Positions 1 through 13,968 of a stretch of 64,000 nt of DNA are shown in pieces. Made by a program: the position numbers and the translations under genes. Position 1 is the first letter of the stretch, and the number at the start of each line of letters is the position of its first letter. The stretch is taken from NCBI GenBank assembly GCA_039586755.1, contig JBDHJU010000011.1, forward strand, positions 14,412 through 78,411, written 5' to 3'. The DNA is from Gemmatimonadota bacterium. GTDB lineage: Bacteria; Gemmatimonadota; Gemmatimonadetes; Palauibacterales; KS3-K002. Under the pieces are notes generated by a model. It was given only the letters and a program-made list of their open reading frames with translations. It had not been told where the DNA came from and ran no database searches.

Positions 1-733
1 TTTCGATTTCTTTCCCGTCGGAGGGCCGCTGGATCTTGCCCCCCGTGGGGCCGCCCACCGAGGCGAGGCGCTCCATCATCAGGTTGGTGATCACGTTCGG
101 GTATGTACCGAACCCCAGATTCTCGATCTGCTCGGCTGGGAACGGGTCCCAACCGGTCGCCCAGATCACAGCCTGAACGTCCAGCTCGATCGTCTCGGTC
201 CCCATATCGAGCTCGATTGCATCGTACGGACATGCCGGCACGCATTTCCCGCATTCGGCTCCCGGGCACACGCTACCGTCGATCGCGTACTGCAGCGGAT
301 GAGCCATCTCGAACGGCAGGTAGATTGCCTTGGTCACCGCCATCCCGAGGTTGAACTCATCAGCTCGCTCCACGGGGCAGGCCTCGACGCACTTGGCGCA
401 GGCCGTGCACTTGGCGTTCACAAAGCGTGGTGTTCGCTGGATGGTGGCTTTGTAGTTTCCGGGGCCGCCGGTGATCTTTTCGACCTGTGACAGCGTCAGG
501 CATCGAATGCGCGGGCTGGTCCTGAGGCGACGAAAGTGAATCTCCAGGCCGCAGGTCGGTGGGCAGAGCTTGGGAAAGTACAGGCTCATCTGAGCCACAC
601 GGCCGCCCAAGTGAGGGTTCTTCTCCACCAACACCACCTCGCAGCCTGCTTCGGATGCCTCGATCGCGGCGGCGATACCGCTTATGCCGCCGCCGATCAC
701 CAGGACCGTTCCCCGCTTCCCGTTTCCGCTCAT
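1..733 (-). CDS. qmoA: QmoA / HdrA-like FAD oxidoreductase, N-terminal part only (gene runs off the left window edge)
   Basis: Absent from the ORF track because it is open to the window edge. My reverse-strand translation from ATG at 733 reads MSGNGKRGTVLVIGGGISGIAAAIEASEAGCEVVLVEKNPHLGGRVAQMSLYFPKLCPPTCGLEIHF...CTACAKCVEACP...CGKCVPACPYDAIEL, with no stop down to base 1. It has a GGGISG dinucleotide-binding fold, an LCPPxCGLE motif and two ferredoxin-type Cys motifs, as in HdrA/QmoA. It lies downstream of aprBA as in aprBA-qmoABC loci. ATGA start/stop overlap with the upstream gene. Confidence 0.7.
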   Translation of the reverse strand, partial: MSGNGKRGTVLVIGGGISGIAAAIEASEAGCEVVLVEKNPHLGGRVAQMSLYFPKLCPPTCGLEIHFRRLRTSPRIRCLTLSQVEKITGGPGNYKATIQRTPRFVNAKCTACAKCVEACPVERADEFNLGMAVTKAIYLPFEMAHPLQYAIDGSVCPGAECGKCVPACPYDAIELDMGTETIELDVQAVIWATGWDPFPAEQIENLGFGTYPNVITNLMMERLASVGGPTGGKIQRPSDGKEIE

Positions 734-1626
734 GGTTTGTCCTCGTCGCGGGCCGTGGCCGGCTGACTGCTGAATACCTTCCTTTTGTCGAGGCTGCCCT
801 TGAAGGCATCGACTACTTCCGCCTTGGCCTTGACGGTCGGCTCGCCGAAGAGGCTGAACCGCAGCCAGAGGAACGCGAATCGTAGCAGCGCCTCGTCGTT
901 GTAGCGCATCTCTTCGACGAAGTCCTCATCCACATCGAACCGCTGCAGCAGCGTGCTGTCGAAAACGAACTCCCGGAACTTGTCCAGGTCGTAACAGGCG
1001 GTGAACAGCATGTGCATCTTCTGCGGCGAGAGGATCCCGCCATCCTCGAAGAACTTGTGGAGCGTCAGCTCCTTGTACGCCTCACCCCACTCGTCGTACT
1101 CGTCGATACCCTGGTCGTCGAGCCACTCGCGAACCGTCCACCGGTGCGACTCCGCGAATCCGCGGCAGCCCTCCTCCTGCAGGAGGAAGTAGAAGCGGTC
1201 ACCACGCCAGCCGTCCGGCGTGTCTTTTTGGGCCGCCAGCCCGAGTGGGTACATGCGGCAAGGCCATGGCCGGTCCGAGTAGACGCCGCAGCCGCCGTCC
1301 GTCAAGAACGGACAGGTCCGCACCTCGTCGTCGTTCATGCGGAGCATGACGACGGGGGTCTTCATGTCCTTCTGGACGGGCAGCAGTGCGTACTGGTCGA
1401 GGAAGTCGCTCGATGTCATCCCCAGGCGTCGCTTCAGGCGCAGGACATCGTACGGGGACAGGAAGATGTTCACGTCGCTGCAGCACTTATTGAAGCAGGA
1501 GACGCCGGGATGGCAGGCGAACTTGAAGGTGTCCTCGGGTCCGAGCCTGGCGTGATCGGTCAGGATTTTCTCCTCCAGGCGGCCATGGGGATCCTCAGAC
1601 GTCGGGGAACGTTGCTCGTCGGTCAT
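730..1626 (-). CDS. YkgJ/UPF0153-type cysteine-cluster protein (putative Fe-S or Zn protein)
   Basis: 298-aa ORF. N-terminal cluster ACHPGVSCFNKCC, then TCPFLTDGGCGVYSDRPWPCRMYP, which matches the C..FL...C.iY..RP..Cr.yP hallmark of the CxxCxxCC (YkgJ) family as I recall it. 4-nt overlaps with both neighbouring genes. Confidence 0.6.
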   Translation of the reverse strand: MTDEQRSPTSEDPHGRLEEKILTDHARLGPEDTFKFACHPGVSCFNKCCSDVNIFLSPYDVLRLKRRLGMTSSDFLDQYALLPVQKDMKTPVVMLRMNDDEVRTCPFLTDGGCGVYSDRPWPCRMYPLGLAAQKDTPDGWRGDRFYFLLQEEGCRGFAESHRWTVREWLDDQGIDEYDEWGEAYKELTLHKFFEDGGILSPQKMHMLFTACYDLDKFREFVFDSTLLQRFDVDEDFVEEMRYNDEALLRFAFLWLRFSLFGEPTVKAKAEVVDAFKGSLDKRKVFSSQPATARDEDKP

Positions 1627-1907
1627 TCATTTTCTCCTTCTTCGTTCTCCACGATCATCTCACGCGTCGCGGAGTCCGACCAGACCGGAATCATCGACGA
1701 GGCGCCAGTTGTGGGATTGACCATATATCGATACGACGCATGTTGACTAAACTGCTGTTCCATCCACTCCCAGCCCTCCCGGTAATACGAGCAGTCGTCG
1801 TTGAAGCAGACGTAGAGGAACTTCTCGGTCCACGTAGCGCCGTCCGGGACGATCCACTTCTTGAGACGCTGACCACAATGTGGACAGTCTCGGGAGATCT
1901 TGACCAT
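1623..1907 (-). CDS. Small zinc-ribbon-like protein of unknown function (94 aa from the internal ATG; the ORF is open to 1997)
   Basis: MVKISRDCPHCGQRLKKW...YVCFNDDCSYYREGWEWMEQQF gives CxxC plus Cx4C, four Cys in total. GAGGA lies 7-8 nt upstream of the ATG at 1907. Its stop overlaps the start of the YkgJ-like gene (ATGA). Confidence 0.5.
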   Translation of the reverse strand: MVKISRDCPHCGQRLKKWIVPDGATWTEKFLYVCFNDDCSYYREGWEWMEQQFSQHASYRYMVNPTTGASSMIPVWSDSATREMIVENEEGENE

Positions 1908-2080
1908 CGGTATCCTCGATCGATTACTGGTTGCCGTGGGGATCCGTGCGCAGTCGATCACCTTGCCGGTATGGCTCGAAGAAACAACGCCTGACATAGG
2001 ACAAGCCTGGGAGTGTGGAGCGGCCGGAACCTTCGAGCGTCGTGCCGTGACGCCCGAAGATCCCGGAGCTCGTGAACTAC

Positions 2081-3082
2081 CTAACTCGTGATGTACTTGA
2101 CGGGCTTCTTCATCATCGTCCAGTCGCCCGTGCCCCTGTCGTACTTGCAGTTGCAGAAGGCAAGCCAGTTCTTGTCGTCCATGCTCGGTTTGTCAGCGCG
2201 GAAGTAGTAGCCCGGCCAGCGGGTCTCCTCCCGGAACAAGATCGAGCGCATGTGGGCATCGGCCTGGTACATGCGGTGGACGTTCTCCCAGCAGCGCATC
2301 AGCTCGTGCAGGTTGGAGGCCGCCAGCTTCTCGGCATCTTCCTTCAGGAAGCTCAGCAGCTCCATGCCCTTTTCGAGCAGCTTGTCGCTGGTCTTGAACT
2401 GGCTGGACACACCACCCGCGTACTCGTCCATGATCTTCTGCAAGCGGTACATGAACTGCTGCGGGCGGATGTAGTTGGGGTTGATATCCGGGTCAGTGGT
2501 CATGCCACTGTACTCCTCGAACGTTGCCATGGGCCTGAGGATCTCTGCCGTCAGCGCGTCGACCTGGCCCTGATCCAGGTTGGGGGCCTGGTTGTTGTCG
2601 ACGATGTAGGAGATCGCGGCCTTGGCTGCGATACGACCCTCGGCATGTGAGCCGGAGGAGAACTTGTGGCTCGAGGCTCCTGAGGCGTCGCCGGCGGCGA
2701 ACATCCCGTTGACCGTGGTCATGTGCGGGTAACCCCAGAAGTAGTCGTCCTTCGTGTCGGCGGTCTGCAGATCCTCCGGACCGGAGACCCAGGCGCCGGA
2801 GGCGCCGGAGTGCGACCCGATGAAGTAGGGATCACAGGCCATGATCTCGGAAGCCTTCTTCTCGGGCTCGACGTTCGTGGCGGCCCAGAGGATCGCCTGC
2901 GAGATCGTCATGTCGAGGAAGTCCTCCCAAGCTTCGGCCTCGCGGGTGCCTCGTCGGCGATCTTCTTGATCGCGTCGGAGGTCTGCATGTAGATCGGGCT
3001 CTTGCCGTCCATCACGTCCAACATCATCAGCCAGTTGCGGATATTGGCAGGACGCGGCTTCACCTTGCCGTAGGGCTCCCAC
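2081..3082 (-). CDS. aprA: Adenylylsulfate (APS) reductase alpha subunit, C-terminal fragment (the real AprA sequence begins near AEAWEDFLDM)
   Basis: From EAEAWEDFLDMTISQAILWAATN...FAAGDASGASSHKFSSGSHAEGRIAAKAA...RWPGYYFRADKP the translation is typical AprA. The N-terminal 40 or so residues of this ORF are out-of-frame read-through. Confidence 0.9.
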   Translation of the reverse strand: MGALRQGEAASCQYPQLADDVGRDGRQEPDLHADLRRDQEDRRRGTREAEAWEDFLDMTISQAILWAATNVEPEKKASEIMACDPYFIGSHSGASGAWVSGPEDLQTADTKDDYFWGYPHMTTVNGMFAAGDASGASSHKFSSGSHAEGRIAAKAAISYIVDNNQAPNLDQGQVDALTAEILRPMATFEEYSGMTTDPDINPNYIRPQQFMYRLQKIMDEYAGGVSSQFKTSDKLLEKGMELLSFLKEDAEKLAASNLHELMRCWENVHRMYQADAHMRSILFREETRWPGYYFRADKPSMDDKNWLAFCNCKYDRGTGDWTMMKKPVKYITS

Positions 3083-3939
3083 TTGTCGAGCTCGGCGGCG
3101 TTTTCCTGCATATAGTTGCCGCCCTCGGCGTTCGTCGCGATCGACTTGAAGAGCAGGAACCAGGCACCCACCGGGCCGTACGCGTCCTTGAACCGTACGG
3201 GGATGAAGCGAACTTCCTGGCAGGTCATCTCGGCACCGCCGTAGATCGTGAAGAAGGCGCTGGCGCCGGAGTTGAACGGCGGGTACCAGGAGCGGCCGAA
3301 GCCCTCACCGGTCGAACGCGGCTTGAACACGTGCACCGCACCGCCCATGGCGACCAGCGTGGCCTTTGCCTTGAACACGTAGATCTTATTCTCTCTGACG
3401 CTGAAACCGATCGCGCCCACGCACTTGTCGCCGTCCATCAGCGGGTGCGTGATGAACACGCGCTCGAAGTACTCGCCGCCGGCCTCTGCCAGCGCGTTCT
3501 TTGCCGCCTCAGCAACGATGACCTTGTAGGACTCGCCGTTGATCATCAGCTGCCAACGACCCTCGTGGACGTAGTTGCCTTCCTTGTCCTTCCAAATCGG
3601 CAGGCCCCACTTCTCGAACAGGTGGACAGTCGAGTCTACGTGGCGCGCGATGCTGGCCACGAGGTCCTCGCGGGTGATGCCCATGAGGTCGTTGCGGACG
3701 TAGTCGATGTAGTCCTTAAGACTGTTGTTGCCGCTGTTAAGGTCCACGTACTGGTTAATGGCCGACAGGCCCATGGCCACCGCTCCCGAGCGGTCCATGG
3801 CCGCCTTGTCCACCACGGTGACCTTCAACCCGTTCTTCTTCGCCCAATAGGACGCTTCGACCGCCGCTCCGCATGCGGCCATACCGCCGCCGCAGATAAG
3901 CAGATCGGTCTCAACCGTTACGGTCTCAAAATCCGGCAT
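2908..3939 (-). CDS. aprA: Adenylylsulfate (APS) reductase alpha subunit, N-terminal fragment (frameshifted relative to 2081-3082)
   Basis: MPDFETVTVETDLLICGGGMAACGAAVEASYWAKK... has the FAD-binding fold. It looks AprA-like through IYMQTSDAIKKIADE, then 11 unrelated residues and a stop. Confidence 0.9.
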   Translation of the reverse strand: MPDFETVTVETDLLICGGGMAACGAAVEASYWAKKNGLKVTVVDKAAMDRSGAVAMGLSAINQYVDLNSGNNSLKDYIDYVRNDLMGITREDLVASIARHVDSTVHLFEKWGLPIWKDKEGNYVHEGRWQLMINGESYKVIVAEAAKNALAEAGGEYFERVFITHPLMDGDKCVGAIGFSVRENKIYVFKAKATLVAMGGAVHVFKPRSTGEGFGRSWYPPFNSGASAFFTIYGGAEMTCQEVRFIPVRFKDAYGPVGAWFLLFKSIATNAEGGNYMQENAAELDKWEPYGKVKPRPANIRNWLMMLDVMDGKSPIYMQTSDAIKKIADEAPARPKLGRTSST

Positions 3940-3989: not shown

Positions 3990-4457
3990 CTAGAGCGTTG
4001 GGACCTTGTCCATCTTGACCGGGCCGCGCTCCGTGTTGAGGCCCTGCGGCTCGCACATCAGCGTCGCGCTCTTCAGGTCATCGTCGCCTGTCGGATAGTG
4101 ATCGAACGGCTGAGCCTTACCTTCCTCGACGCCCCTGCGGATCGGGAACTTGAAGCGTTTCGGCTTGATGTCCTTACTGCGGAACTGCAGGGTCCACATG
4201 ATGTCCTCGCTGCTACGCATCGCCGTGACGCTCGCCCCCAGCGGGACGAAGTCCTGGTAACCGCGGACCTCGATAGCCTGCGTCGGGCAGATCTTCACGC
4301 AGCTGTAGCATTCCCAGCACATCTGCGGATCCTGGTTGAAGGCCTTCATGCTATCCTTGTTCAGGACCATGAGATCGTTCGGACAGATGTGCTGGCAGGC
4401 GGTCTTATCGAGCGCCTTGCAACCGTCACACTTGTCCACAATCACGTAACTCGGCAT
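3990..4457 (-). CDS. aprB: Adenylylsulfate (APS) reductase beta subunit
   Basis: MPSYVIVDKCDGCKALDKTACQHICPNDLMVL...MCWECYSCVKICPTQAIEVRGY...DIMWTLQFR shows the characteristic AprB two-[4Fe-4S] ferredoxin domain plus tail. It lies directly upstream of aprA. Confidence 0.93.
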   Translation of the reverse strand: MPSYVIVDKCDGCKALDKTACQHICPNDLMVLNKDSMKAFNQDPQMCWECYSCVKICPTQAIEVRGYQDFVPLGASVTAMRSSEDIMWTLQFRSKDIKPKRFKFPIRRGVEEGKAQPFDHYPTGDDDLKSATLMCEPQGLNTERGPVKMDKVPTL

Positions 4458-4581
4458 CTCCGCGCCTCCTGGTTGAATTGTACGTACGCCTACATCTCTC
4501 CGGGGTGATCGCTAGCGAGTCGCCGAGGGGCTTCCGCGGGGGCGGGAAGCTGTATGTGACTGCTTAGGGTGGGGCTTGTGC

Positions 4582-4628
4582 GATTTTTTTCACGATTCTC
4601 GGCACTTACCGAGATTTTTGTCACGATT
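4582..4628 (-). promoter_or_regulatory. Candidate operator/promoter element upstream of aprBA: two 16-nt direct repeats flanking a small inverted repeat
   Basis: Plus strand gatttttttcacgatt (4582-4597) and gatttttgtcacgatt (4613-4628) match at 15 of 16 positions with a 31-bp period. CTCGG-N6-CCGAG lies between them (4598-4613). This AT-rich patch sits 125-170 nt upstream of the aprB start in an otherwise GC-rich intergenic region. Confidence 0.4.
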
Positions 4629-4772
4629 ACAATCTGGCAAGGTATTCCGCCCCGCGCAAGGAGGGCGAAGAAACATGATACCGTTGTGAGTTTTAGGCCG
4701 GAAACGACCCGCACGAAGCCTCTCTCGGGGCCTAGATCCGGGCCGGTGGGGGCGCTGCCTGGAGCAGGTCGC

Positions 4773-6965
4773 TCAGGAGCCGATTAGCGAGGGGAGGTGG
4801 TTCTCGATCCACTCCTCGACCTCGTCGACGGCGGCTGAGAAGTGGGGTTGGGAGCGCATGGCGTCTGCGAAACCGGCAACGGCCCGGTCGAGATCCTCGG
4901 CGGTCCAGAGTGATAGGCCGTTCGGCAAGTCGGTCGCGGGGATGGAGCCGAACGTGTTGAAGTCGATGACCCTGAGGGGCTCGGCGGTGAAATCGCGCAG
5001 ACCGCCCAGGGTTTTGGCATCGAAAAGGGGTTCTTGGCTGTCGACGCCGAAGTAGACGAAACCTGCATGGGCGATGGCGCGGGCGACGCCGGCCTCGGAG
5101 TACGACTGGACACGCAGGCGCTTCCCGTGGCCGACGGCACTGCGCAGCAGCTTGAGCTGGCCGTGGTGCCTCCTGTAGATCAGGGTCATCTGGCTCTGAG
5201 GTACGTCGAAGTGCTCGGACAGGGCGGAGAGGATCGAACGCGAAGTAGCCGATCCCCCGATGACGACGTGACGACACTCGTCCATGTGGGCGCCGTCGAC
5301 CTCCTGGACCCGTGCCAGGGCGGCCAGACAGAAGCTGGGGCTGAAACGACCCCATGCGGTCTCGGCTCGTACGTCGCGCGCGAGAGCCACGGCGTTTTTC
5401 ACCAGGCAGGTCGCTCGCGGACCTGCCGTGCCGGCGCGTTCGGCGGTCCGGCAGGCCGTCTGCAGCTGCGCCACCACGTCGGTGTCCCCGGGCAGGGCAC
5501 TATTCAGGCCGCAGGCGGTGCGCATCAGATGATGCCAGGCCTCGAAACCGAGCAGTGTGTTCACCTCTAGCCCTTCGGTCTCGGGACCGTACAGTCGGTC
5601 GCGGATCTGCTCGGCGACCCGCTTCCGCGCCGCGGGGTCGCCCGGATCGGCGAGCCAGCCGTAGAACTCGATCCGCTGACAGGTACTCCAGACGAACGCC
5701 TCGCTGATACCGGGCATCTCCCGCACCGAGTCGAGGAAGCCACGCACTTGTTTACGGGTCTTCCTAACCTTGCCGAAAACCCGGGGACGGCTGTACCGCA
5801 TGCGGGGACCGCGGCCGGAACGGACTCCGCCCTCGAACGAGGCGCCGATCATCACCAGCGACTCGGGCTCGCCGTCACAGAGTTCCAACTCCGGCTTCAG
5901 CCTCAGCAGCGGAACGGGCGCCGGCCGATCCGCCGTCACCGGACGCGGCCCCCTGAGCACCAGATTCCTGAGGGCTGCGACGAACGGCTCGGACGCGTTC
6001 AACCCAGGGCACAAGCTGAGTTGGCCGCCCCCCGACTCGAAGACCTCCCGGCATTCCACGTCGATCTCCCCCAGCGTCTCGAACCCGTCGATCGGCGCCG
6101 TGATCGCACTGACCAGCACCTTCTTCTCACCCGCGTCGGCGAGCTCGGCGAGCCTCTCGCTGATATGGGGGCGGAGCGAGCAGAGCGGCGCCGGGTGGGT
6201 CAGGAAGCCTAGCGAGGCCCTTTCCAGCGGCCAGCCCAGTCGGTCGGCGACCAGCCTGACCGTCCGTCTCACCTGACCCGTGTAGAGGGCCCCCCCCTGG
6301 CCCCGCGAGGCCGGCTGGCCGTGAGCGCAAAAGACCAGGTGCGCCTCATCCGGCCACAGGCCCTCCGACGCGGCATAGTCGGCGATAATTCGGGCCTGCG
6401 CTTTGACGTAACCCACGTCGTCATACCAGGTGGATCGAAGCGCCACATTGATGTGCTGCCCCCTGTGCCTCAGCACTCGGTGCAGCTCGCGAAGGATGGT
6501 GCCGGACGTGGCACGGTTGAACTGAGGGTACATCGGCACGACCACCAGATCGTCGATGCCGTCGGCTTCTACCTGGCTCATGACGTCGGCTATCTTCGGC
6601 TGGCCGTAGCGCATGGCCACGTAAACGGCCCAAGCCTCGGGCAGCGCCGCGGCGAGGGCCGAGGCCTGATCCGACATGAGGACCGCCTGCGGAGCTCCGC
6701 GCACGTCCCAGACTTTGCCGTACAGATCGGCTGAGGGGGCAGCCAGGCGCCCGGCCCGCATACGGCCGAGACCCCGCTGAAGCCAGTTCAGCCCCTGAGG
6801 CCACTTGACGAGCGAGGAGTCGGTGAATGACTCCGCCAGCAGCTTGCGCACCGATGGAACGTCGGGCCGATCGGGCGCTCCTAGACCGACCAGCAGGACG
6901 CCCCGGCGTCGCGAAGCCTGTGGTGGGCGATCCGCGCCCAATGACGGCTCTGTCTGGAGGTTCAC
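4773..6965 (-). CDS. Fusion protein: N-terminal ferrochelatase (HemH/class II chelatase) domain plus C-terminal glutamyl-tRNA reductase (HemA)-like domain
   Basis: 730 aa. N-terminal half: VLLVGLGAPD...VVVPMYPQFNRATSG...VFCAHGQPASRG...IDGFETLGEIDVE, a ferrochelatase pattern. C-terminal half: AFVWSTCQRIEFYG (the GluTR catalytic-Cys STCNR-E motif), ALPGDTDVVAQL, and a degenerate VVIGGSATSRSI nucleotide-binding site. Confidence 0.7.
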   Translation of the reverse strand: MNLQTEPSLGADRPPQASRRRGVLLVGLGAPDRPDVPSVRKLLAESFTDSSLVKWPQGLNWLQRGLGRMRAGRLAAPSADLYGKVWDVRGAPQAVLMSDQASALAAALPEAWAVYVAMRYGQPKIADVMSQVEADGIDDLVVVPMYPQFNRATSGTILRELHRVLRHRGQHINVALRSTWYDDVGYVKAQARIIADYAASEGLWPDEAHLVFCAHGQPASRGQGGALYTGQVRRTVRLVADRLGWPLERASLGFLTHPAPLCSLRPHISERLAELADAGEKKVLVSAITAPIDGFETLGEIDVECREVFESGGGQLSLCPGLNASEPFVAALRNLVLRGPRPVTADRPAPVPLLRLKPELELCDGEPESLVMIGASFEGGVRSGRGPRMRYSRPRVFGKVRKTRKQVRGFLDSVREMPGISEAFVWSTCQRIEFYGWLADPGDPAARKRVAEQIRDRLYGPETEGLEVNTLLGFEAWHHLMRTACGLNSALPGDTDVVAQLQTACRTAERAGTAGPRATCLVKNAVALARDVRAETAWGRFSPSFCLAALARVQEVDGAHMDECRHVVIGGSATSRSILSALSEHFDVPQSQMTLIYRRHHGQLKLLRSAVGHGKRLRVQSYSEAGVARAIAHAGFVYFGVDSQEPLFDAKTLGGLRDFTAEPLRVIDFNTFGSIPATDLPNGLSLWTAEDLDRAVAGFADAMRSQPHFSAAVDEVEEWIENHLPSLIGS

Positions 6966-7459
6966 GGCTGGGGTTTGAGCTTGCGATCCTGGCCGATGAG
7001 ATCGGTGATCTGGTCGCGTGTGCGTCTCGCCAGCGCCGGATCGCGTCCATCGGTGAAGACGGCGATCGTGACGTCCTCACTTTGCAGCAGAGCTCCAAAG
7101 ATTACCTGCGAGCGCTCGGCCGATGACGCGTCGCACGCCAGTGCGCCGTTCCGAACTGCAGCTTGGACGACGGCGGCGTTGCGGTCATCCTCATCCGTGG
7201 CGGCGACGGCGAGGAACTTGCTACCCATGTGCTCTTCGCGGAACGAGTCCTGTACCCAGCGGACGCGGCCGGCCTCGATCAGCTGGGCGAGCTCGTCTGT
7301 AACCTCGGGTGATACCACGGTAACGACGGCCCCGGCATGCGTGAGGGTGATGACTTTGCGAGTCCCGACATTTCCGCCACCCACGACCAGGCAGTCCTTG
7401 TTCCGGACGTCGAGTCCTAGCGGCAGAAAGCGTAGCCTGTCCGAGGGGTCGCTGGTCAT
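6962..7459 (-). CDS. sirC: Precorrin-2 dehydrogenase / sirohydrochlorin ferrochelatase-type protein (SirC / CysG N-terminal domain-like)
   Basis: LPLGLDVRNKDCLVVGGGNVGTRKVITLTHAGAVVTVVSPEV...LAVAATDEDDRNAAVVQAAVRNGALAC is the typical siroheme synthase N-terminal Rossmann domain. GTGA overlap with the downstream fusion gene. Confidence 0.75.
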   Translation of the reverse strand: MTSDPSDRLRFLPLGLDVRNKDCLVVGGGNVGTRKVITLTHAGAVVTVVSPEVTDELAQLIEAGRVRWVQDSFREEHMGSKFLAVAATDEDDRNAAVVQAAVRNGALACDASSAERSQVIFGALLQSEDVTIAVFTDGRDPALARRTRDQITDLIGQDRKLKPQP

Positions 7460-7488
7460 GTCCTCCGGGGCCTTCTTATAGTCTCGTT

Positions 7489-7941
7489 TCAGTGGCCGAC
7501 GCTCAATATACCGCTCGCCGCGAGTGTCAGGATGGCAGCCTCCAACAGGGCCATGACCACGTAGGGCGTATCTCGTTTCTTGATTAGCGTGGGGACGATT
7601 CCCAAGAAGCAGAAGATGGTCACTGCGGAAAGCACGGCGATCCCCAGAAAATTCAGATAGTCACCCTTTCCGATCACGGACAGCCAGGACCATCCGGATA
7701 TCGGGTGCTCATGGTGCAGGTGGTCGTGATTCGTCGCCTCCAGATAGTCGTGGACGTTCATCGTCCAGTACTCGGGGAGTTGTTCCACCGGAACGGCCGG
7801 CGCAACGATGCCGCTGGTGTAAAGGGCAAAGGTCACGAGTAGGAGGGCCAGCCCGAAGTACATGCCGGTCTGGAGGATCTTGGCGTAGAGGAGTTGTTCC
7901 TCGTCAGCGCCAGGGCAATCTACGTTGCCGTTCGTCTCCAT
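7489..7941 (-). CDS. Small polytopic membrane protein, possibly the DUF1634-type partner of TauE/DUF81 permeases
   Basis: 150 aa with about four hydrophobic helices and a His-rich loop (HDHLHHEH). It lies 15 nt downstream of the TauE-like gene. The family assignment is from memory of gene-neighbourhood patterns only. Confidence 0.4.
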   Translation of the reverse strand: METNGNVDCPGADEEQLLYAKILQTGMYFGLALLLVTFALYTSGIVAPAVPVEQLPEYWTMNVHDYLEATNHDHLHHEHPISGWSWLSVIGKGDYLNFLGIAVLSAVTIFCFLGIVPTLIKKRDTPYVVMALLEAAILTLAASGILSVGH

Positions 7942-7956
7942 GTTTACACTCGCTCC

Positions 7957-8910
7957 CTAAACGATGAACGGGAGGCCGAGTCCCTTGGTGATCGCCTTGG
8001 CCCCGGCGAAGAGCAGCAGGGCGATGACGACCCAGCGAACGAACCCCGGCCTCGCGATCCGCAGGATTCGTACGCCGATAAACGACCCCAGCATTATGCC
8101 TACCAGTGACGGCACTACCATCATTGGGATTACGGCGCCCTTGTTAACATAGATCCAGGCCGCCGACGTGTCAGTGATTGACAAAAGGAATTTGCTGGTC
8201 GCCACACTGACCTTGAGCGGCGCTCCCATCACCAGGTTCAGAACCGGGATGTTGGCCCAACCGGCGCCCAGTCCGAACATCCCCGCCATCACGCCTATAA
8301 CAATGAACAGTAGCAAGCCGGGCACAGTACGGTGAACCTTCCAGTTGATCGTCTGACCCATGCTCGCCTCTGTGTACACGCCACAGATCCGCAACGCCGA
8401 AGAGACACGGTCTGGCTCAGCGACCTCCGGGAACACCGATTTCTTCGCTGCGATCATTATCGCGACAATCCCCAGGATGGTCGCTCCGAGGGCTGTCTGG
8501 ACAATATTCGTCGGTAGAGCGAGGCCGATCATCGCTCCGACGATCGCACAAGTCGAGGCGATCAGGGCCACAGGCATCGCCAGGCGCAGGCTGGCCAGGT
8601 TCATCTTCAGGAAGCCCGGCCCGGCGGCGAGCGCGCCGCTTAGCGCCACCAGAAGCCCACAGCCGCGAACGAAGTCGAGGTGGAAGGGAAAGAACCCACT
8701 CACGATCGGAACGAACAGAACGCCTCCGCCCACACCGCCCAGAGCCGCGAGGATGCCCATGACGAACGTGAGCACGAACAGGATGAGCGGCCACACCCAC
8801 CATGCTGTCGTGCTGCTGGAGACCGCTGGCGCCGTCAGATCGCTCGCCTGGATGACGGTTGGGTAGAGCAGCAGGAAAAGGCAGAGAAGTGCGCCCGTAA
8901 GATACGGCAT
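7957..8910 (-). CDS. tauE: TauE/SafE (DUF81) family sulfite/organosulfonate anion exporter
   Basis: Polytopic and Gly-rich: LGGVGGGVLFVPIVSGFFPFHLDFVRGCGLLVAL...GLGAGWANIPVLNLVMGAPLKVSVATSKF. The likely start is MPYLTGALLCLF at 8910. The ORF is open to 8988, but that extension looks like a relic of another gene (see findings). Confidence 0.75.
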   Translation of the reverse strand: MPYLTGALLCLFLLLYPTVIQASDLTAPAVSSSTTAWWVWPLILFVLTFVMGILAALGGVGGGVLFVPIVSGFFPFHLDFVRGCGLLVALSGALAAGPGFLKMNLASLRLAMPVALIASTCAIVGAMIGLALPTNIVQTALGATILGIVAIMIAAKKSVFPEVAEPDRVSSALRICGVYTEASMGQTINWKVHRTVPGLLLFIVIGVMAGMFGLGAGWANIPVLNLVMGAPLKVSVATSKFLLSITDTSAAWIYVNKGAVIPMMVVPSLVGIMLGSFIGVRILRIARPGFVRWVVIALLLFAGAKAITKGLGLPFIV

Positions 8911-8965
8911 GAATCGTCGCGTTCCTAAGATGTTCACCTGGCCTCGACTCGGGGTTCCACGCGAC

Positions 8966-8984
8966 ATCGTGATAATCGCACGAT
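8966..8984. promoter_or_regulatory. Perfect 6-bp inverted repeat ATCGTG-N7-CACGAT upstream of tauE
   Basis: Plus strand atcgtg (8966-8971), ataatcg, cacgat (8979-8984). It lies 56-75 nt upstream of the probable tauE start and shares the AATCGTG core with the aprBA upstream repeats. Confidence 0.35.
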
Positions 8985-9183
8985 TCAACCTGATGCGAGA
9001 TATGCTCGGCGGCGCGCGGTGTCAAGCTGAGCGGAGTGTGGGCTGTCTCATCGCTGGAGAAAGGTCGAGCAATATGATATCTTGCGGTGGCCGCTTTTCT
9101 CGTGCGAGGCCTCGCGACGTATTGCGCCTCGCGAGTCCGAAGGCGCTCAGCATCCACGCGAGCCCACATGTGGGCCAGGAGTC

Positions 9184-9858: not shown

Positions 9859-10785
9859 TTGATGAGCAAAATCAAGCTGCTCCTCGTCGATGACGAAGAA
9901 GCCTACGTAAAGACGCTGGCCGAGAGAATGGAGATGCGCGACGTCGGCAGTCGCGTGGCCTTGAGCGGCGAAGAGGCGCTGGAGATGCTCGAGGACGAGC
10001 CGCCCGACGTGATGGTTCTCGACCTCCGCATGCCGGGCATCGACGGGATGGAAGTGTTAGAGCGGGTCAAGCAGAAGCATCCCCACGTAGAAGTGATCAT
10101 TCTCACCGGGCACGGCTCGGACAGAGAGGAAAAGGAGGCGCGCAGGCTGGGGGCGTTCGAGTACCTGCAGAAGCCGGCGGATACGAGTCACCTCCTGAAT
10201 ACCGTTCGGGCGGCTTGGCGAAAGAGCTTGAAGGCCGCCGCCGAGTTCATCAAGGACTCGCAGGAAGAATTCGACAGGAGCATGGCTGCGGCAGCTTTCG
10301 CTGAGGCGGGCGCGCCGGAGATCGCCAGGGAGACGATGCAGGAGTCGACCCCGCGACCCGACGTGGACACCGATGAAGCCGGCGCCGCGGAGGCCGACGC
10401 CGCCACTCAGACGCTCAAGGTCCTGTTCGTTGATGACGAAGAGGACTTCGTGCGGACCATGGCCGAACGAATGGAGATGCGCGACGTGGGCAGCGAGGTG
10501 GCGCTGGATGGACAGCAGGCATTGGAGATGCTCGAGGACGAAGTACCGGACGTCATGGTTCTCGACCTGCGTATGCCGGGCATCGACGGCTTGGAGGTAT
10601 TGCGGCGCGTCAAGAGGACGTATCCAGAGATGGCAGTGATCATCATGACCGGCCATGGGTCGGAGGCGGACGAAGCAGAAGCTCGCCGCTTGGGGGCGTT
10701 TGATTACCTGACCAAGCCGGTCGACATCAATCAGCTCATGGATGTTATCCGCGAAGCGGGTCGCTCGCGTCGGAAAGCGGAGTAG
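9859..10785 (+). CDS. Tandem double-receiver (REC-REC) response regulator with no output domain
   Basis: Two CheY-like domains. Each has DD (LLVDDEE / LFVDDEE), a phospho-acceptor Asp (VMVLDLRMPGIDG in both), T (ILTGHG / IMTGHG) and K (YLQKP / YLTKP). An acidic or Ala-rich linker joins them. Confidence 0.85.
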   Translation: MMSKIKLLLVDDEEAYVKTLAERMEMRDVGSRVALSGEEALEMLEDEPPDVMVLDLRMPGIDGMEVLERVKQKHPHVEVIILTGHGSDREEKEARRLGAFEYLQKPADTSHLLNTVRAAWRKSLKAAAEFIKDSQEEFDRSMAAAAFAEAGAPEIARETMQESTPRPDVDTDEAGAAEADAATQTLKVLFVDDEEDFVRTMAERMEMRDVGSEVALDGQQALEMLEDEVPDVMVLDLRMPGIDGLEVLRRVKRTYPEMAVIIMTGHGSEADEAEARRLGAFDYLTKPVDINQLMDVIREAGRSRRKAE

Positions 10786-10809
10786 GGATGGGCGGTCGGG
10801 TTAACGAAG

Positions 10810-12573
10810 ATGATGGTGGAGACGGTAAGCCTGGTTGACGGAACGGGGGAAGATCAAGATCAACTGATCTCCCGACGGCGCTACAGGAAGATGATTCTCG
10901 TGGCGGTGCTTTCGGTATCGGCTGTAGCCGTCGCTCCGCTTCTCATCATGTCGAGTATTACCTACCACCAGTATCAGGAGGCGTTCCGAGCTGAGCTGAC
11001 CCGCCCCATGCTGCGGTTCGCCGTGGCCGGTAAGCAGGCGATCGAGTCCTACCTCTCGGAGCAGGTAGCGGCTCTCGCCATGGTGGCGCGCGAGACGTCG
11101 CTCAAGGAGCTTCGTGACCCGGGAAGGTTGAGCTCGTTGCTCACCAACATGAACCAGACCTTTGGCGGAGTGGTCGAGCTCAGCATGATCAACGAGGGGG
11201 GCGTGCAGGTCGCCTATGCCGGTCCGGGGGAGCCGCAGGCGGTCAGCTACGCGGACGATCGGTGGTTCCGAGAGGTCAGCGCCCGCGGCACGTACGTTAG
11301 CGACATGTTCCTGGGGCACCGAAACGACCCCCACATGGTTGTCGCGATCCAGCACGAAGACTCGGAAGGGAATCGGTACATCTTACGTGCGACGCTCGAT
11401 ACCGATCCATTCCACTGGCTAGTGCGCGCTCGTACGGCCCGCCGTCCGGAACTCAACCAGGTCTGTCGCAGATGCCATTCGCTGGGGGCCCAACAATTCA
11501 GCGACGCGTTCATCGTCAACCGCGAAGGTGTCCTGCAGAGTTCCTCGCGTCTTTATGGCGGCGTGTTGGAGCGCACCCCCTTACCGACTTTTCCGTACAG
11601 CAGTCAGGTGGAGCTTGTCGATGTAGTGGACGAGCAGGGAGAGCCGCTCATCGTATGTTACGCGCAGATCGATCGCTCGCCGTTTACGCTGGTGGTGTTG
11701 AGTCCTCGCATCGCTCTGCACGCGGGTTGGTTCCCGCTGCGCCGCGACCTGCTGGTATTTCCGGCGATCAGCGTCGCGCTGATTCTGGCAGTCGTCATCT
11801 GGGGTTCGATCTACGTGGTGAACCGCGTTCGCGAGGCGGATGCAAAGCGCGCGGCGCTCTACCACAAGATGGAGTACACCAACAAGATGGCCGCTATCGG
11901 GCGCCTGGGTGCCGGTGTGGCTCACGAGATCAACAACCCGCTGTCGATCATCACCCAGAACGCGGGACTGCTGAAGGATCTGATCACGCTGTCCGAGGAG
12001 TTACCCCCGAGGGATAAGCTGACCCATCTGGTGAATTCGGTTCTCAACGCCGCCGAGCGCTGTGGTGGGATTACCCACCGTCTCCTGGGTTTCGCCAGGC
12101 ACATGGAAGTGCAATGGGAGACTATCGATCTCGATGGGTTGCTCAGAGAAGTCCTGGAGTTCCTTGGGAAGGAAGCCAGCTACCGTGACATCCAGATCGA
12201 ATTCAAATACTCCGGTACGCCGCCTCCCATCGTCAGCGACAGGGGGCAGTTGCAGCAAGTGTTCCTGAACATCGTCAACAATGCTTTCGCCGCAGTCGAT
12301 GATGGTGGGCAGATCGAGATTGGGATTGAACAGCTTGGGGACGACGCCGTTGCGGTGACCATCGCCGACGATGGCGTAGGCATTCCTGAGGAACAGCTGG
12401 GGCAGATCTTCGATCCGTTCTTTACGACGAAGAAAGGTGCGGGGACGGGCCTGGGTCTCTCCATTACATATGGGATAGTGCAAAAACTGGGTGGGCAGAT
12501 CAGCGTCGAGAGCAAGGTGGGTGAAGGTACCTGCTTCACAGTCACACTGCCGATACGTCGGGCGCACGCCTAG
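10810..12573 (+). CDS. Membrane sensor histidine kinase with a periplasmic double-Cache-like domain
   Basis: TM1 near residue 30 and TM2 LLVFPAISVALILAVVIWGSIYVV. H-box AAIGRLGAGVAHEINNPLSII, N-box QVFLNIVNNAFAA, G-boxes DDGVGI and GTGLGLSI. The periplasmic segment contains CRRCH. Confidence 0.85.
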   Translation: MMVETVSLVDGTGEDQDQLISRRRYRKMILVAVLSVSAVAVAPLLIMSSITYHQYQEAFRAELTRPMLRFAVAGKQAIESYLSEQVAALAMVARETSLKELRDPGRLSSLLTNMNQTFGGVVELSMINEGGVQVAYAGPGEPQAVSYADDRWFREVSARGTYVSDMFLGHRNDPHMVVAIQHEDSEGNRYILRATLDTDPFHWLVRARTARRPELNQVCRRCHSLGAQQFSDAFIVNREGVLQSSSRLYGGVLERTPLPTFPYSSQVELVDVVDEQGEPLIVCYAQIDRSPFTLVVLSPRIALHAGWFPLRRDLLVFPAISVALILAVVIWGSIYVVNRVREADAKRAALYHKMEYTNKMAAIGRLGAGVAHEINNPLSIITQNAGLLKDLITLSEELPPRDKLTHLVNSVLNAAERCGGITHRLLGFARHMEVQWETIDLDGLLREVLEFLGKEASYRDIQIEFKYSGTPPPIVSDRGQLQQVFLNIVNNAFAAVDDGGQIEIGIEQLGDDAVAVTIADDGVGIPEEQLGQIFDPFFTTKKGAGTGLGLSITYGIVQKLGGQISVESKVGEGTCFTVTLPIRRAHA

Positions 12574-12582
12574 GAGCGGCAC

Positions 12583-12969
12583 ATGGACCCCTTACGTGTT
12601 CTGATCGTCGACGACGAAGCCGAGCTGGTCACCGCCCTGGAGGAGCGGCTCAACCTGCGGGGGTTCGAGGCCAGGGGTGTGACGACCGGCGCCGATGCGC
12701 TCGCGCTACTCGCCGAGCTGCCGTTCGATGTGGTGCTACTGGACTTGAAGATGCCGGGGCTCGGCGGGTTGGAAGTCATCAGGAGGATCAAGCAAGAGCA
12801 ACCGGGGCTAAAGGTAATCCTGTTAACAGGTTGGGGCTCCGAGGAAGACGCCGAAAAAGGGAAGGCACTCGGGGCCTACGACTACCTGATGAAGCCCGTG
12901 AAGATCAGCGACCTGGTGCGGGTCCTGCTCTCCGCCTGTGACCGGGAGGAGGAGGAAAGAGAAGAATGA
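12583..12969 (+). CDS. Single-domain response regulator (CheY-like receiver)
   Basis: VLIVDDEAE...VVLLDLKMPGLGG...LLTGWG...YLMKP, with an acidic C-terminal tail. Confidence 0.85.
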   Translation: MDPLRVLIVDDEAELVTALEERLNLRGFEARGVTTGADALALLAELPFDVVLLDLKMPGLGGLEVIRRIKQEQPGLKVILLTGWGSEEDAEKGKALGAYDYLMKPVKISDLVRVLLSACDREEEEREE

Positions 12970-13397
12970 ACGAGAGCACCGTGCTGCTCGTCGATGACGA
13001 GGAGGAGTTCGTCGAGGTCTTGGCGGAACGGTTGGAGACGCGCGGTCTCACGGTGGACACCGCGGGGGACGGCGAGCTGGCGTTGGAGAAGGCGGGGAAG
13101 CGGTCGTTCGATGCCATCGTCCTCGATATGGCCATGCCGGGCATGGACGGCATCGAAACTCTCAAGGGGCTGCTCCGGATCAACCCGGACCTGCAGGTCA
13201 TTCTACTGACCGGTCGCGCGACCCTGGGCCAGGCGGTGGAGGCGATGAAGCTGGGGGCGTTGGATTTTCTGGAGAAGCCGGTAGACATCGAAACGCTGGT
13301 GGCGAAGATCGAGGAGGCGGCGACGAAGAAATCGTCACTCAAAGAGAAACGCATCGCGGACAAACTGTCCGACATCATGCGAAAGAAGGGCTGGTGA
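12966..13397 (+). CDS. Single-domain response regulator (CheY-like receiver)
   Basis: VLLVDDEEE...AIVLDMAMPGMDG...LLTGRA...FLEKP. 4-nt overlap with the preceding receiver gene. Confidence 0.85.
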   Translation: MNESTVLLVDDEEEFVEVLAERLETRGLTVDTAGDGELALEKAGKRSFDAIVLDMAMPGMDGIETLKGLLRINPDLQVILLTGRATLGQAVEAMKLGALDFLEKPVDIETLVAKIEEAATKKSSLKEKRIADKLSDIMRKKGW

Positions 13398-13927
13398 CAG
13401 TGGAAGCCATGAGGCGCATCAAGGAAATCATGATTCCCGTGGAGCAGTACCCCTCGGTGCGGGACAACGCCACGCTACGGGAAGCGATTGTGAAGATCGA
13501 GGAAGCGCAGCTCGAGGTCGAACTGCGCAAATCTCTGCCTCGTGTGCTGTTGGTGTTCGATGAGATCGACGTGCTGGTCGGGACGGTTCGGCGCCGCGAC
13601 ATCATGAGAGGTTTGGAGCCGAAGTATCTGCTTAGCAAGCCACTGGAGTACAAGAAGAAGCTGTTTGATATAGCTGTAGATCCCAATCTAGCGGAGCTTT
13701 CCTACGATCGGGTCGTACGAGGGATCAGGGAGCAGTCGAATAGGCCGGTGAGCGATGTGATGCAACCGATTCCAGCGATCCTCGATGCCGAGGATCACGT
13801 CATGAAGGCAGTGCAGGCGATGGTCGCTCTCGACGTCAACCTGATTCCGGTGCTTCGGGAGGGGAAGCTCGTCGGTGTCGTGCGGTCGGTCGACGCGTTT
13901 CACGACCTGGCCCAACTGGTGAGATAG
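13394..13927 (+). CDS. CBS-pair domain protein
   Basis: IKEIMIPVEQYPSVRDNATLREAIVKI...LVGTVRRRDIM and VSDVMQPIPAILDAEDHVMKAVQAMVALDVNLIPVLREGKLVGVVRSVD are two CBS motifs. GTGA overlap with the upstream gene; an alternative ATG lies at 13409. Confidence 0.8.
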   Translation: MTVEAMRRIKEIMIPVEQYPSVRDNATLREAIVKIEEAQLEVELRKSLPRVLLVFDEIDVLVGTVRRRDIMRGLEPKYLLSKPLEYKKKLFDIAVDPNLAELSYDRVVRGIREQSNRPVSDVMQPIPAILDAEDHVMKAVQAMVALDVNLIPVLREGKLVGVVRSVDAFHDLAQLVR

Positions 13928-13968
13928 TAGCGGCCCTATTTGGGACCGCTCGCGAGGTCGTCGCTACC

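Follow-up and report, generated by a model that had tools for sequence, protein, structure and literature searches.

The route by which electrons reach or leave adenosine 5'-phosphosulfate (APS) reductase is a long-standing question in dissimilatory sulfur metabolism and, to our knowledge, both the energetics and the full set of partners remain unsettled. The question is raised again by a locus from a Gemmatimonadota bacterium, which lies in a stretch of 64,000 nucleotides (nt) of contig JBDHJU010000011.1 (this whole stretch is called the window in what follows). Here two genes for cysteine-rich proteins lie between aprA, which encodes the alpha subunit of APS reductase, and qmoA, which encodes a subunit of QmoABC, the accepted partner of the reductase (Ramos et al. 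2012, PMC3333476). What are these two proteins, is their position at this junction maintained in other organisms, and what might they do there? The pair consists of two uncharacterised putative metalloproteins whose genes occupy the Apr/Qmo junction across a very large, environmentally dominant set of apr lineages, which includes marine and groundwater Gemmatimonadota, Planctomycetota, Zixibacteria, Ignavibacteria and others. As a possible extra component of the APS reductase system it is a concrete candidate that can be tested, and it also offers a convenient marker for a major class of apr operons that departs from the canonical type. Its presence also suggests that models based on Desulfovibrio and Archaeoglobus may not fit the enzyme complex of most uncultured sulfate reducers and sulfite oxidisers.

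Two cysteine-rich genes between aprA and qmoA

A first-pass annotation, made from the sequence alone, had placed two cysteine-rich genes between aprA and qmoA, and this is borne out by the list of open reading frames and by the sequence itself; both genes are on the minus strand, at 730-1626 (298 amino acids, aa) and 1623-1907 (94 aa). Domains and families were assigned by Pfam and NCBIfam profile scans of the window proteins, with scores compared to the gathering or model cutoffs. In this search, which the annotation had suggested as a check, the 298-aa protein was assigned to PF03692 (CxxCxxCC; 32.1 bits against a cutoff of 23, residues 40-129) and the 94-aa protein to PF04606 (Ogr_Delta; 32.4 bits against a cutoff of 26.3, profile positions 2-44 of 47), in agreement with the cysteine-rich, metal-binding type that had been claimed for both. 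PF03692, which Pfam describes as a 'putative zinc- or iron-chelating domain', is also the precomputed assignment on all listed homologs of the larger protein. The two are referred to below as the YkgJ-type protein and the zinc-ribbon protein. Chance reading frames were ruled out, since each gene has hundreds to thousands of conserved homologs.

At E <= 0.001 the YkgJ-type protein has 2514 clusters of homologs, and identity to it is 73-86% for all of the best 120. When the 50%-identity representatives of the whole library were searched, 1973 clusters passed E <= 0.001, of which 193 also passed E <= 1e-30; many of the matches are full-length relatives of 35-52% identity. It is clear from these comparisons that eight cysteines are maintained: of 62 diverse homologs, reaching down to 35% identity, 61-62 carry each of C38, C44, C48, C49, C105, C113 and C123 and 60 carry C154, and in an alignment of 96 sequences all eight are invariant. 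Also conserved are H39, D60, R63, R119, P120, R124 and several aromatic residues of the C-terminal half. The first four cysteines are spaced CX5CX3CC (CHPGVSCFNKCC) rather than as the literal CxxCxxCC of the family name, and this spacing is nearer to the CX4CX3CC of FliB. The latter, a flagellin lysine methyltransferase, is the only biochemically characterised protein with a PF03692-like cysteine motif; EPR (electron paramagnetic resonance) and Mössbauer spectroscopy together with mutagenesis have shown that this motif binds one oxygen-sensitive, redox-active [4Fe-4S] cluster (PMC8598068).

In the AlphaFold2 model of the YkgJ-type protein (pLDDT 83.7, pTM 0.78) the N-terminal half, which carries the CX5CX3CC motif and the four further cysteines, is made of strand and coil, and is followed by an all-helical C-terminal domain of about 130 aa (residues ~165-286). 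No Pfam family was matched by this helical domain. For the protein as a whole, sequence and fold searches of the PDB gave no solved structural relative, and at E <= 0.1 there was no match to any NCBIfam model, that for FliB included, nor to PF02754, the CCG domain.

One of the long homologs is an informative fusion: in P0219 (690 aa, from a JGI metagenome) a radical S-adenosylmethionine (SAM) domain is fused N-terminally to a YkgJ-type homolog. The other long homologs have N-terminal extensions without a Pfam domain. Two observations concern homologs that are not linked to apr genes. At L120 (1149-2093) a radical-SAM gene is found two genes upstream of the homolog. Desulfofundulus spp., which are cultured Gram-positive sulfate reducers, carry a homolog of 38% identity (L117, 2523-5845); this gene, Desku_1529 ('UPF0153'), is directly 3' of NuoE-like ([2Fe-2S]) and NuoF-like (flavin mononucleotide/NADH) genes, neighbours that fit a redox role, if as a minor point.

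The mechanical open reading frame of the smaller gene is 124 aa long, from an ATG at 1997. The start at 1907, giving 94 aa, was adopted because the homologs (203 clusters) are mostly 94 aa long, conservation sets in with this methionine, and there is a GAGGA Shine-Dalgarno sequence ahead of it. In the 94-aa form the zinc-ribbon cysteines are at positions 8, 11, 34 and 39 (CX2C-X22-CX4C), and all four are invariant. The AlphaFold2 model (pLDDT 82.5) shows, besides the zinc ribbon, a single helix and a beta hairpin, and has an acidic tail that is disordered; the C-terminal beta/alpha part is conserved, and it is outside the zinc finger that conservation is highest. No PDB entry was matched by sequence or by fold, so that there is no solved structural relative, and no NCBIfam family was matched. 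Furthermore, no PHROG family was found at E <= 0.01 and no viral fold in BFVD at E <= 0.001; beyond its zinc-finger motif the protein is therefore not to be classed as an Ogr/Delta transcription activator. A phage-derived Ogr regulator cassette was likewise ruled out, the neighbourhood of the pair containing no phage genes, and phage family and phage fold being absent too.

The two genes are joined to each other and to qmoA by ATGA start/stop overlaps at 1623-1626 and 730-733, exactly where these had been claimed, the ATG of qmoA (731-733) overlapping the stop codon of the YkgJ-type gene. These overlaps are conserved in relatives. At the junction of the zinc-ribbon and YkgJ-type genes the overlap is 4 nt in 51 of 65 loci, and at the junction with qmoA it is 4 nt in 35 of 60, with a 1-nt overlap in 10 more. 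The zinc-ribbon gene is not coupled to aprA in this way; the spacer between them is 173 nt in the window and around 150-175 nt across loci. Within it lies a GC-rich RNA stem-loop (2018-2071, minus strand), identified by RNA folding, which begins 10 nt past the aprA stop codon and has a core stem of 18 bp and a loop of 7 nt; the fold of the 196 nt from 1900 to 2095 has an energy of -73.8 kcal/mol (z -2.67). In the related spacers (L008-L078) a hairpin of 15-18 bp is predicted at the same place, with z below -2 in 56 of 63, and the stem sequences differ among relatives with the pairing kept. No Rfam family was matched by this hairpin. It is probably a partial terminator, or an element for processing or stabilising the mRNA, that sets the ratio of aprBA to the downstream genes. 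Such an element would keep aprBA transcripts abundant, with the zinc-ribbon, YkgJ-type and qmo genes expressed together at a lower level.

Linkage to aprBA in close and distant relatives

The first-pass annotation had let its finding stand or fall with conserved linkage to apr/qmo in other genomes, and such linkage was clearly seen. One genome per GTDB species was scanned, giving 71 loci; their labels, which are those of the depositors of the metagenome-assembled genomes (MAGs), include Gemmatimonadota, Planctomycetota (Pirellulaceae, Phycisphaerae), Latescibacterota, Spirochaetales, 'delta proteobacterium', Desulfobacteraceae UBA2156, Chitinivibrionia and others. Upstream sequence was sufficient in 55 loci, and in 54 of them aprA is no more than 1.5 kb upstream of the YkgJ-type gene, the sole exception being L009, which has a 100-N scaffold gap at the aprA site. 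Downstream, qmoA is within 600 nt in 57 of 65 loci. The closest loci are from the Gemmatimonadota MAGs L008, L009 and L108, whose YkgJ-type proteins are 94-95% identical to that of the window. Within this close family AprA is 84-95% identical across different phylum labels. Median identities to L008 were calculated for 37 complete loci and are 73.6% for the YkgJ-type protein and 68.1% for the zinc ribbon, compared to 72.9% for QmoA, 74.3% for QmoB, 58.9% for QmoC and 87.4% for AprA; by this measure of sequence, the constraint on the YkgJ-type protein is on a par with that on the Qmo subunits.

A more distant set was obtained by scanning metagenome contigs with an alignment of 10 distant relatives, the apr, qmo and sat genes being located by tblastn. 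Among loci with homologs of the YkgJ-type protein below 60% identity (38-56%), 27 have upstream sequence of at least 2.5 kb. In 21 of these aprA is directly upstream on the same strand, and in 24 apr or qmo genes are present at some point of the locus. The AprA that these homologs adjoin is of 50-75% identity.

The surroundings of the genes differ between these loci. The order aprBA (AprA ~70%), zinc ribbon, YkgJ-type, qmoABC is found, as is the same order without the zinc ribbon (AprA ~70%; label Chloroflexota). In loci labelled Thermodesulfovibrionales and 'Methanobacteriota', aprBA (~50-55%) is followed by two YkgJ-type genes and then qmoABC; in those labelled Ignavibacteriaceae and BMS3Abin03 the order is (qmoAB)-sat-aprBA (~75%), zinc ribbon, YkgJ-type, qmoC; and a divergent architecture, labelled Thermodesulfobacteriota, has two YkgJ-type paralogs and one zinc ribbon. 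Omnitrophota have aprBA, an Ogr-type gene (106 aa), the YkgJ-type gene and qmoABC. In Zixibacteria (L159, 8859-11397), sat-aprBA, an Ogr-type gene (92 aa) and a YkgJ-type gene (275 aa) are followed by DsrM-like and DsrK-like genes. Similarly, in L035 (6959-10403) the pair is followed by a second YkgJ-type paralog and then by DsrM-like and DsrK-like genes; L027 also has a second paralog ahead of DsrMK-like genes, and these second paralogs are of 53-54% identity. The DsrM-like proteins are of NarI type and the DsrK-like proteins of Fer4 plus CCG type, the CCG domain being found in the DsrK-like neighbour of both L035 and L159; this module may be an alternative membrane partner for AprBA. In L132 and L144 the pair comes ahead of qmoC, and qmoAB is upstream. 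In L018 it is followed by a TauE gene (6912-7943), which overlaps the YkgJ-type stop codon by 4 nt, and then by a QmoC-like gene, and in L002 the genes after the pair are unrelated and there is no qmo.

The constant unit is aprBA, the spacer, an optional zinc ribbon and the YkgJ-type gene, and the next gene or genes usually encode a membrane-linked redox module, the type of which varies. The zinc ribbon is not universal, some clades having the YkgJ-type gene alone and others two YkgJ-type paralogs. The YkgJ-type gene itself accompanies aprBA over many AprA clades (50-95% identity) and more than 10 phylum-level labels. Two terms of the first-pass annotation need to be amended in this light. It had described the genes as inserted at the junction, and the position is correct, but a lineage-specific insertion does not agree with a YkgJ-type gene that is found with aprBA across so many labels. 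It had also described them as coupled to qmoA; this holds for the architecture in which qmoA follows but not as a general rule, as the pair remains beside aprBA in loci where qmoAB lies elsewhere. The carriers of the pair are mostly uncultured, and include Gemmatimonadota, Planctomycetota, Latescibacterota, Zixibacteria, Ignavibacteria/Kapabacteria, Omnitrophota and Chloroflexota; in the clusters that were looked up there was no cultured carrier of the apr-linked form, only MAG labels being seen apart from the unlinked Desulfofundulus homologs.

Possible roles of the pair

The canonical aprBA-qmoABC loci (Desulfovibrio, Thermodesulfovibrio, Chlorobaculum) have the same catalytic and electron-donor genes in the same order, and AprA of the relatives scores 762 bits against that of A. 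fulgidus (1JNR) and 628 bits against that of D. gigas (3GYX). They differ in that qmoA comes immediately after aprA, whereas here two coupled genes and a stem-loop lie between. For Thermonerobacter the order "sat-aprBA-hyp-hyp-qmoC" has been given, with the hyp genes named without family, distribution or function (Thiel et al. 2019, PMC6338057); this is the only earlier mention that was found. These are again two conserved hypothetical genes right after aprA and ahead of a qmo gene and, compared by gene order, they fit the Ignavibacteria/Kapabacteria-type loci found here (sat-aprBA, zinc ribbon, YkgJ-type, qmoC); the difference is that qmoC alone follows the pair in Thermonerobacter, whereas the window has qmoA, with qmoABC-sat in relatives. 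Other lineage-specific extra genes of apr/qmo operons are thought to link AprBA to electron transport: AprM is a membrane-integral anchor co-transcribed with aprBA in the sulfur-oxidiser Apr lineage I (PMC2211403), and QmoD/DVU0851 is a hypothetical gene after qmoC in Desulfovibrio (cf. Zane et al. 2010). Both have other operon positions and, to judge from descriptions, AprM is integral to the membrane, whereas the pair matches only soluble metal-binding Pfam domains. E. coli YkgJ (UPF0153, COG0727) shares PF03692 with the larger protein, the homologs of which bear the NCBI name 'YkgJ family cysteine cluster protein', but it is only ~110 aa long, whereas the apr-linked proteins are of 255-300 aa and carry the additional helical C-terminal domain.

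In an open-access search, YkgJ, CxxCxxCC or Ogr were not mentioned with apr/qmo in Neukirchen 2023, Diao 2023, Anantharaman 2018 or Meyer & Kuever 2008, nor in papers on Gemmatimonadota (2024), cable bacteria (2026), Dissulfuribacter (2026), Thermodesulfovibrio and Ca. Sulfobium. More generally, no link of YkgJ, CxxCxxCC or PF03692 to sulfur metabolism was found in the open-access papers that were searched, in keeping with the earlier remark that no described role in APS reductase function was known for either family. The known Apr-Qmo module would thus have two conserved, unstudied extra components, the breadth of which has apparently not been described previously.

It is quite possible, and it is the reading that we tentatively prefer, that the zinc-ribbon and YkgJ-type proteins are dedicated accessory components of the APS reductase/Qmo module that act as a soluble Fe-S/Zn electron-transfer adaptor. 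The YkgJ-type protein would bind one or two Fe-S clusters through its eight invariant cysteines, and the example of FliB suggests a [4Fe-4S] site at the N-terminal CX5CX3CC. The protein would form a soluble cytoplasmic metalloprotein pair with the zinc ribbon, for which a second YkgJ-type paralog may substitute in some clades. The pair would dock AprBA to the membrane-linked redox module of the host, be it QmoABC, QmoC or a DsrMK-like complex, and would pass or gate electrons between that module and AprB. Translational coupling would keep synthesis of the pair in step with the downstream module, and the conserved stem-loop after aprA would separate it from the more highly expressed aprBA. A relay is suggested because the linkage is found in close and distant loci and persists when the modules are swapped, and because of the coupling, the constraint and the invariant cysteines. 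That it should be a redox function is also suggested by the redox-active [4Fe-4S] cluster bound by the FliB motif and, as minor points, by the NuoE/NuoF-like neighbours of the Desulfofundulus homolog and by the membrane redox subunit gene that usually comes after the pair.

Several points weigh against an electron-transfer adaptor. Cofactor content, complex formation and electron transfer are inferred, and the support for a relay is that of genomic context and sequence conservation. In Thermodesulfovibrio and related Nitrospirota aprA is immediately beside qmoA, an arrangement that we take to hold for Desulfovibrio and Chlorobaculum as well; as these canonical loci are without the pair, AprBA and Qmo can work without these proteins. 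Some of the apr-linked clades are also without the zinc ribbon. Further, a position within an oxidoreductase operon would suit a private chaperone equally well, as for NarJ in narGHJI, and the radical-SAM fusion together with the enzymology of FliB would point towards catalysis over simple electron transfer. The earlier proposal that the two proteins are candidate subunits, assembly factors or redox relays is thus upheld as far as metal-binding proteins at a conserved apr/qmo junction are concerned, with no one of these roles decisively singled out.

As the main rival, the pair may instead serve AprBA, or an Apr-Qmo supercomplex, as a private maturation or assembly factor which delivers or inserts Fe-S clusters or flavin adenine dinucleotide (FAD), or holds apo-AprB/AprA, and then leaves; we regard this as rather unlikely. 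Such a factor would be expected to stay with aprBA whichever membrane module comes next, as the pair does, and cysteine-rich proteins could carry transient clusters; that canonical organisms lack the pair is common for lineage-specific chaperones. The operon position also resembles that of NarJ between narH and narI, a chaperone of this type being encoded between the catalytic subunits and the membrane module, but NarJ is not cysteine-rich, has no metal site and shows no sequence or fold similarity to the pair. Nor does the coupling favour maturation, since it runs to the downstream redox module and not to aprBA, from which the pair is set apart by the conserved hairpin and spacer. The eight invariant cysteines and the conserved 130-aa helical domain exceed what is typical of cluster carriers, and no similarity to Fe-S or flavin assembly factors was found in Pfam, NCBIfam or the PDB.

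That the YkgJ-type protein is a [4Fe-4S]-dependent enzyme, perhaps SAM-dependent like FliB or thiol/disulfide-active like HdrB/DsrK, seems improbable. Such an enzyme would either modify AprBA or Qmo or, at the step between APS and sulfite, act on an intermediate or carrier of sulfur, with the zinc ribbon as its partner or substrate adaptor. FliB has the same type of N-terminal motif and also eight conserved cysteines, and uses this closely similar motif for [4Fe-4S]-dependent methyl transfer; it does so, however, in a flagellar context, whereas the setting here is one of sulfur metabolism. H39, D60, R63, R119 and R124 are invariant or nearly so, as might be expected of an enzyme. The radical-SAM fusion and the radical-SAM gene near the unlinked homolog in L120 would be consistent with catalysis, the fusion being a single case, and in some loci the DsrMK-like module follows the pair, the partner DsrK being a thiol/disulfide catalyst. 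Weighing on the other side are the failure of the YkgJ-type protein to match the FliB model or the CCG domain, and the fact that no SAM-binding motif or fold relative was found for it. We know of no post-translational modification of AprBA.

It is more improbable still that the pair is regulatory, with the Ogr/Delta-type finger serving as an activator of the sulfur operon and the Fe-S protein as a redox or oxygen sensor, or with the two acting as an allosteric modulator of AprBA in the manner of DsrD on DsrAB. The Ogr_Delta match is above its gathering score, with the spacing CX2C-X22-CX4C, presumably also that of phage P2 Ogr; oxygen-labile Fe-S proteins are common as sensors, and a conserved direct repeat upstream of aprB (see below) could be an operator. 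However, the zinc ribbon gave no PHROG match and no fold match to viral or PDB DNA-binding proteins, and its conservation is greatest outside the finger. Tight coupling to genes for structural components, and a constraint that matches that on the Qmo subunits, would be unusual for a transcription factor, and the YkgJ-type gene is kept in clades that have no zinc ribbon. Finally, block transfer of a mobile apr-qmo cassette, as suggested by AprA of 84-95% identity across phylum labels, could have carried along two unrelated passengers, but this is very improbable given a linkage that persists at 50-75% identity in AprA and 38-56% in the YkgJ-type protein despite repeated rearrangement of the surroundings, and given the invariant cysteines, the strong constraint and the conserved start/stop overlaps.

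To return to the electron-transfer adaptor, a bolder form of it, which we consider doubtful, is that the YkgJ-type protein with the zinc ribbon or second paralog is an unrecognised redox-active subunit of electron input to APS reductase in most uncultured apr lineages, and so a 'missing partner' for the varied quinone-linked modules (QmoABC, QmoC, DsrMK-like). Such a subunit might provide a second point of electron entry or exit for confurcation or bifurcation at the HdrA-like Qmo flavoproteins.

The interrupted aprA and the genes around it

The window holds only the N-terminal 244 aa of qmoA (1-733, minus strand), the gene being cut by the left edge. This fragment of an HdrA-like flavoprotein matched Pfam FAD and 4Fe-4S domains and NCBIfam HdrA-type models, and is 82-83% identical to QmoA of the relatives L008 and L108, in which qmoB-qmoC-sat come next. 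Further downstream, dsrC is present in L005, L006 and L108; the record of L008 stops inside sat.

The apr-qmo layout given by the first-pass annotation is correct, but a frameshifting deletion in aprA (2081-3939, minus strand; TIGR02061) had been overlooked. When compared by blastn with four close relatives (L008, L108, L010, L005), the gene lacks 34 bp between 2943 and 2942; the missing segment is ACGAGAAGTCAGCGAAGAAGAAGCTGAAGGAGCT in L008, and short CGAG-type microhomology is found on both sides of the gap. The gene is split into two overlapping open reading frames, 2908-3939 (343 aa) and 2081-3082 (333 aa), and tblastn gives matches in two frames; the relatives have an intact AprA of 630 aa, whereas the window has no intact aprA frame. 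Against TIGR02061 the halves score 457.5 and 408.5 bits, the split of the gene being the only reason why each is under the whole-protein cutoff of 641.75. The deletion may be genuine, marking a pseudogene or a strain variant, or it may stem from an error of assembly. In L009 (CP070812.1, the 'chromosome' of Gemmatimonadota bin1194) the 100-N gap is at 5550-5649, where the end of aprA is expected, and no aprBA was found farther upstream; the assembly seems to be at fault here, at the very locus that carries the aprA deletion in the window.

The gene for the beta subunit, aprB, which carries two [4Fe-4S] clusters, is at 3990-4457 on the minus strand and scores 181.5 bits on TIGR02060 (cutoff 135.65) and 90.1 bits on PF12139 (APS-reductase_C). 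A promoter-like region (4575-4632, minus strand) was picked out upstream of it by a sigma-70-like match, at 4624-4595, and by k-mers shared with related loci. It contains a direct repeat, AATCGTGA[C/A]AAAAATC, at 4628-4613 and 4597-4582, the two copies being 31 nt apart around a short hairpin and around 120-170 nt upstream of the aprB ATG. The k-mers of the repeat are common to 15-21 of 51 upstream regions of related loci, and the repeat may be a putative conserved promoter or operator. In L001 a Rex-like gene lies immediately upstream of aprB.

The apr locus of the window is surrounded by a sulfur-metabolism island that includes tetrapyrrole, transport and two-component genes; Rfam and tRNA scans of the window gave no match. 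On the minus strand, 4773-7459 encodes a 730-aa fusion of ferrochelatase with GlutR_N (the N-terminal domain of glutamyl-tRNA reductase) and then a sirohaem-synthase-like NAD-binding protein. The fusion and the sirohaem-synthase-like gene are conserved directly upstream of aprB in Gemmatimonadota loci (also in L005-L007), which suggests that the supply of tetrapyrrole (sirohaem or haem) is tied to the sulfur genes. At 7489-8988, again on the minus strand, are a TauE/SafE-family permease and a 150-aa membrane protein (with a weak AF_1016 match in relatives), both of which are recurrent neighbours of apr loci; the TauE neighbours hint at a link to sulfite or sulfate transport. A double-receiver response regulator, a histidine kinase and a DASS-family Na+/sulfate symporter adjoin the island at 9859-15498, and in L002 response regulators, a CBS protein and Na_sulph_symp are found ahead of sat-aprBA.

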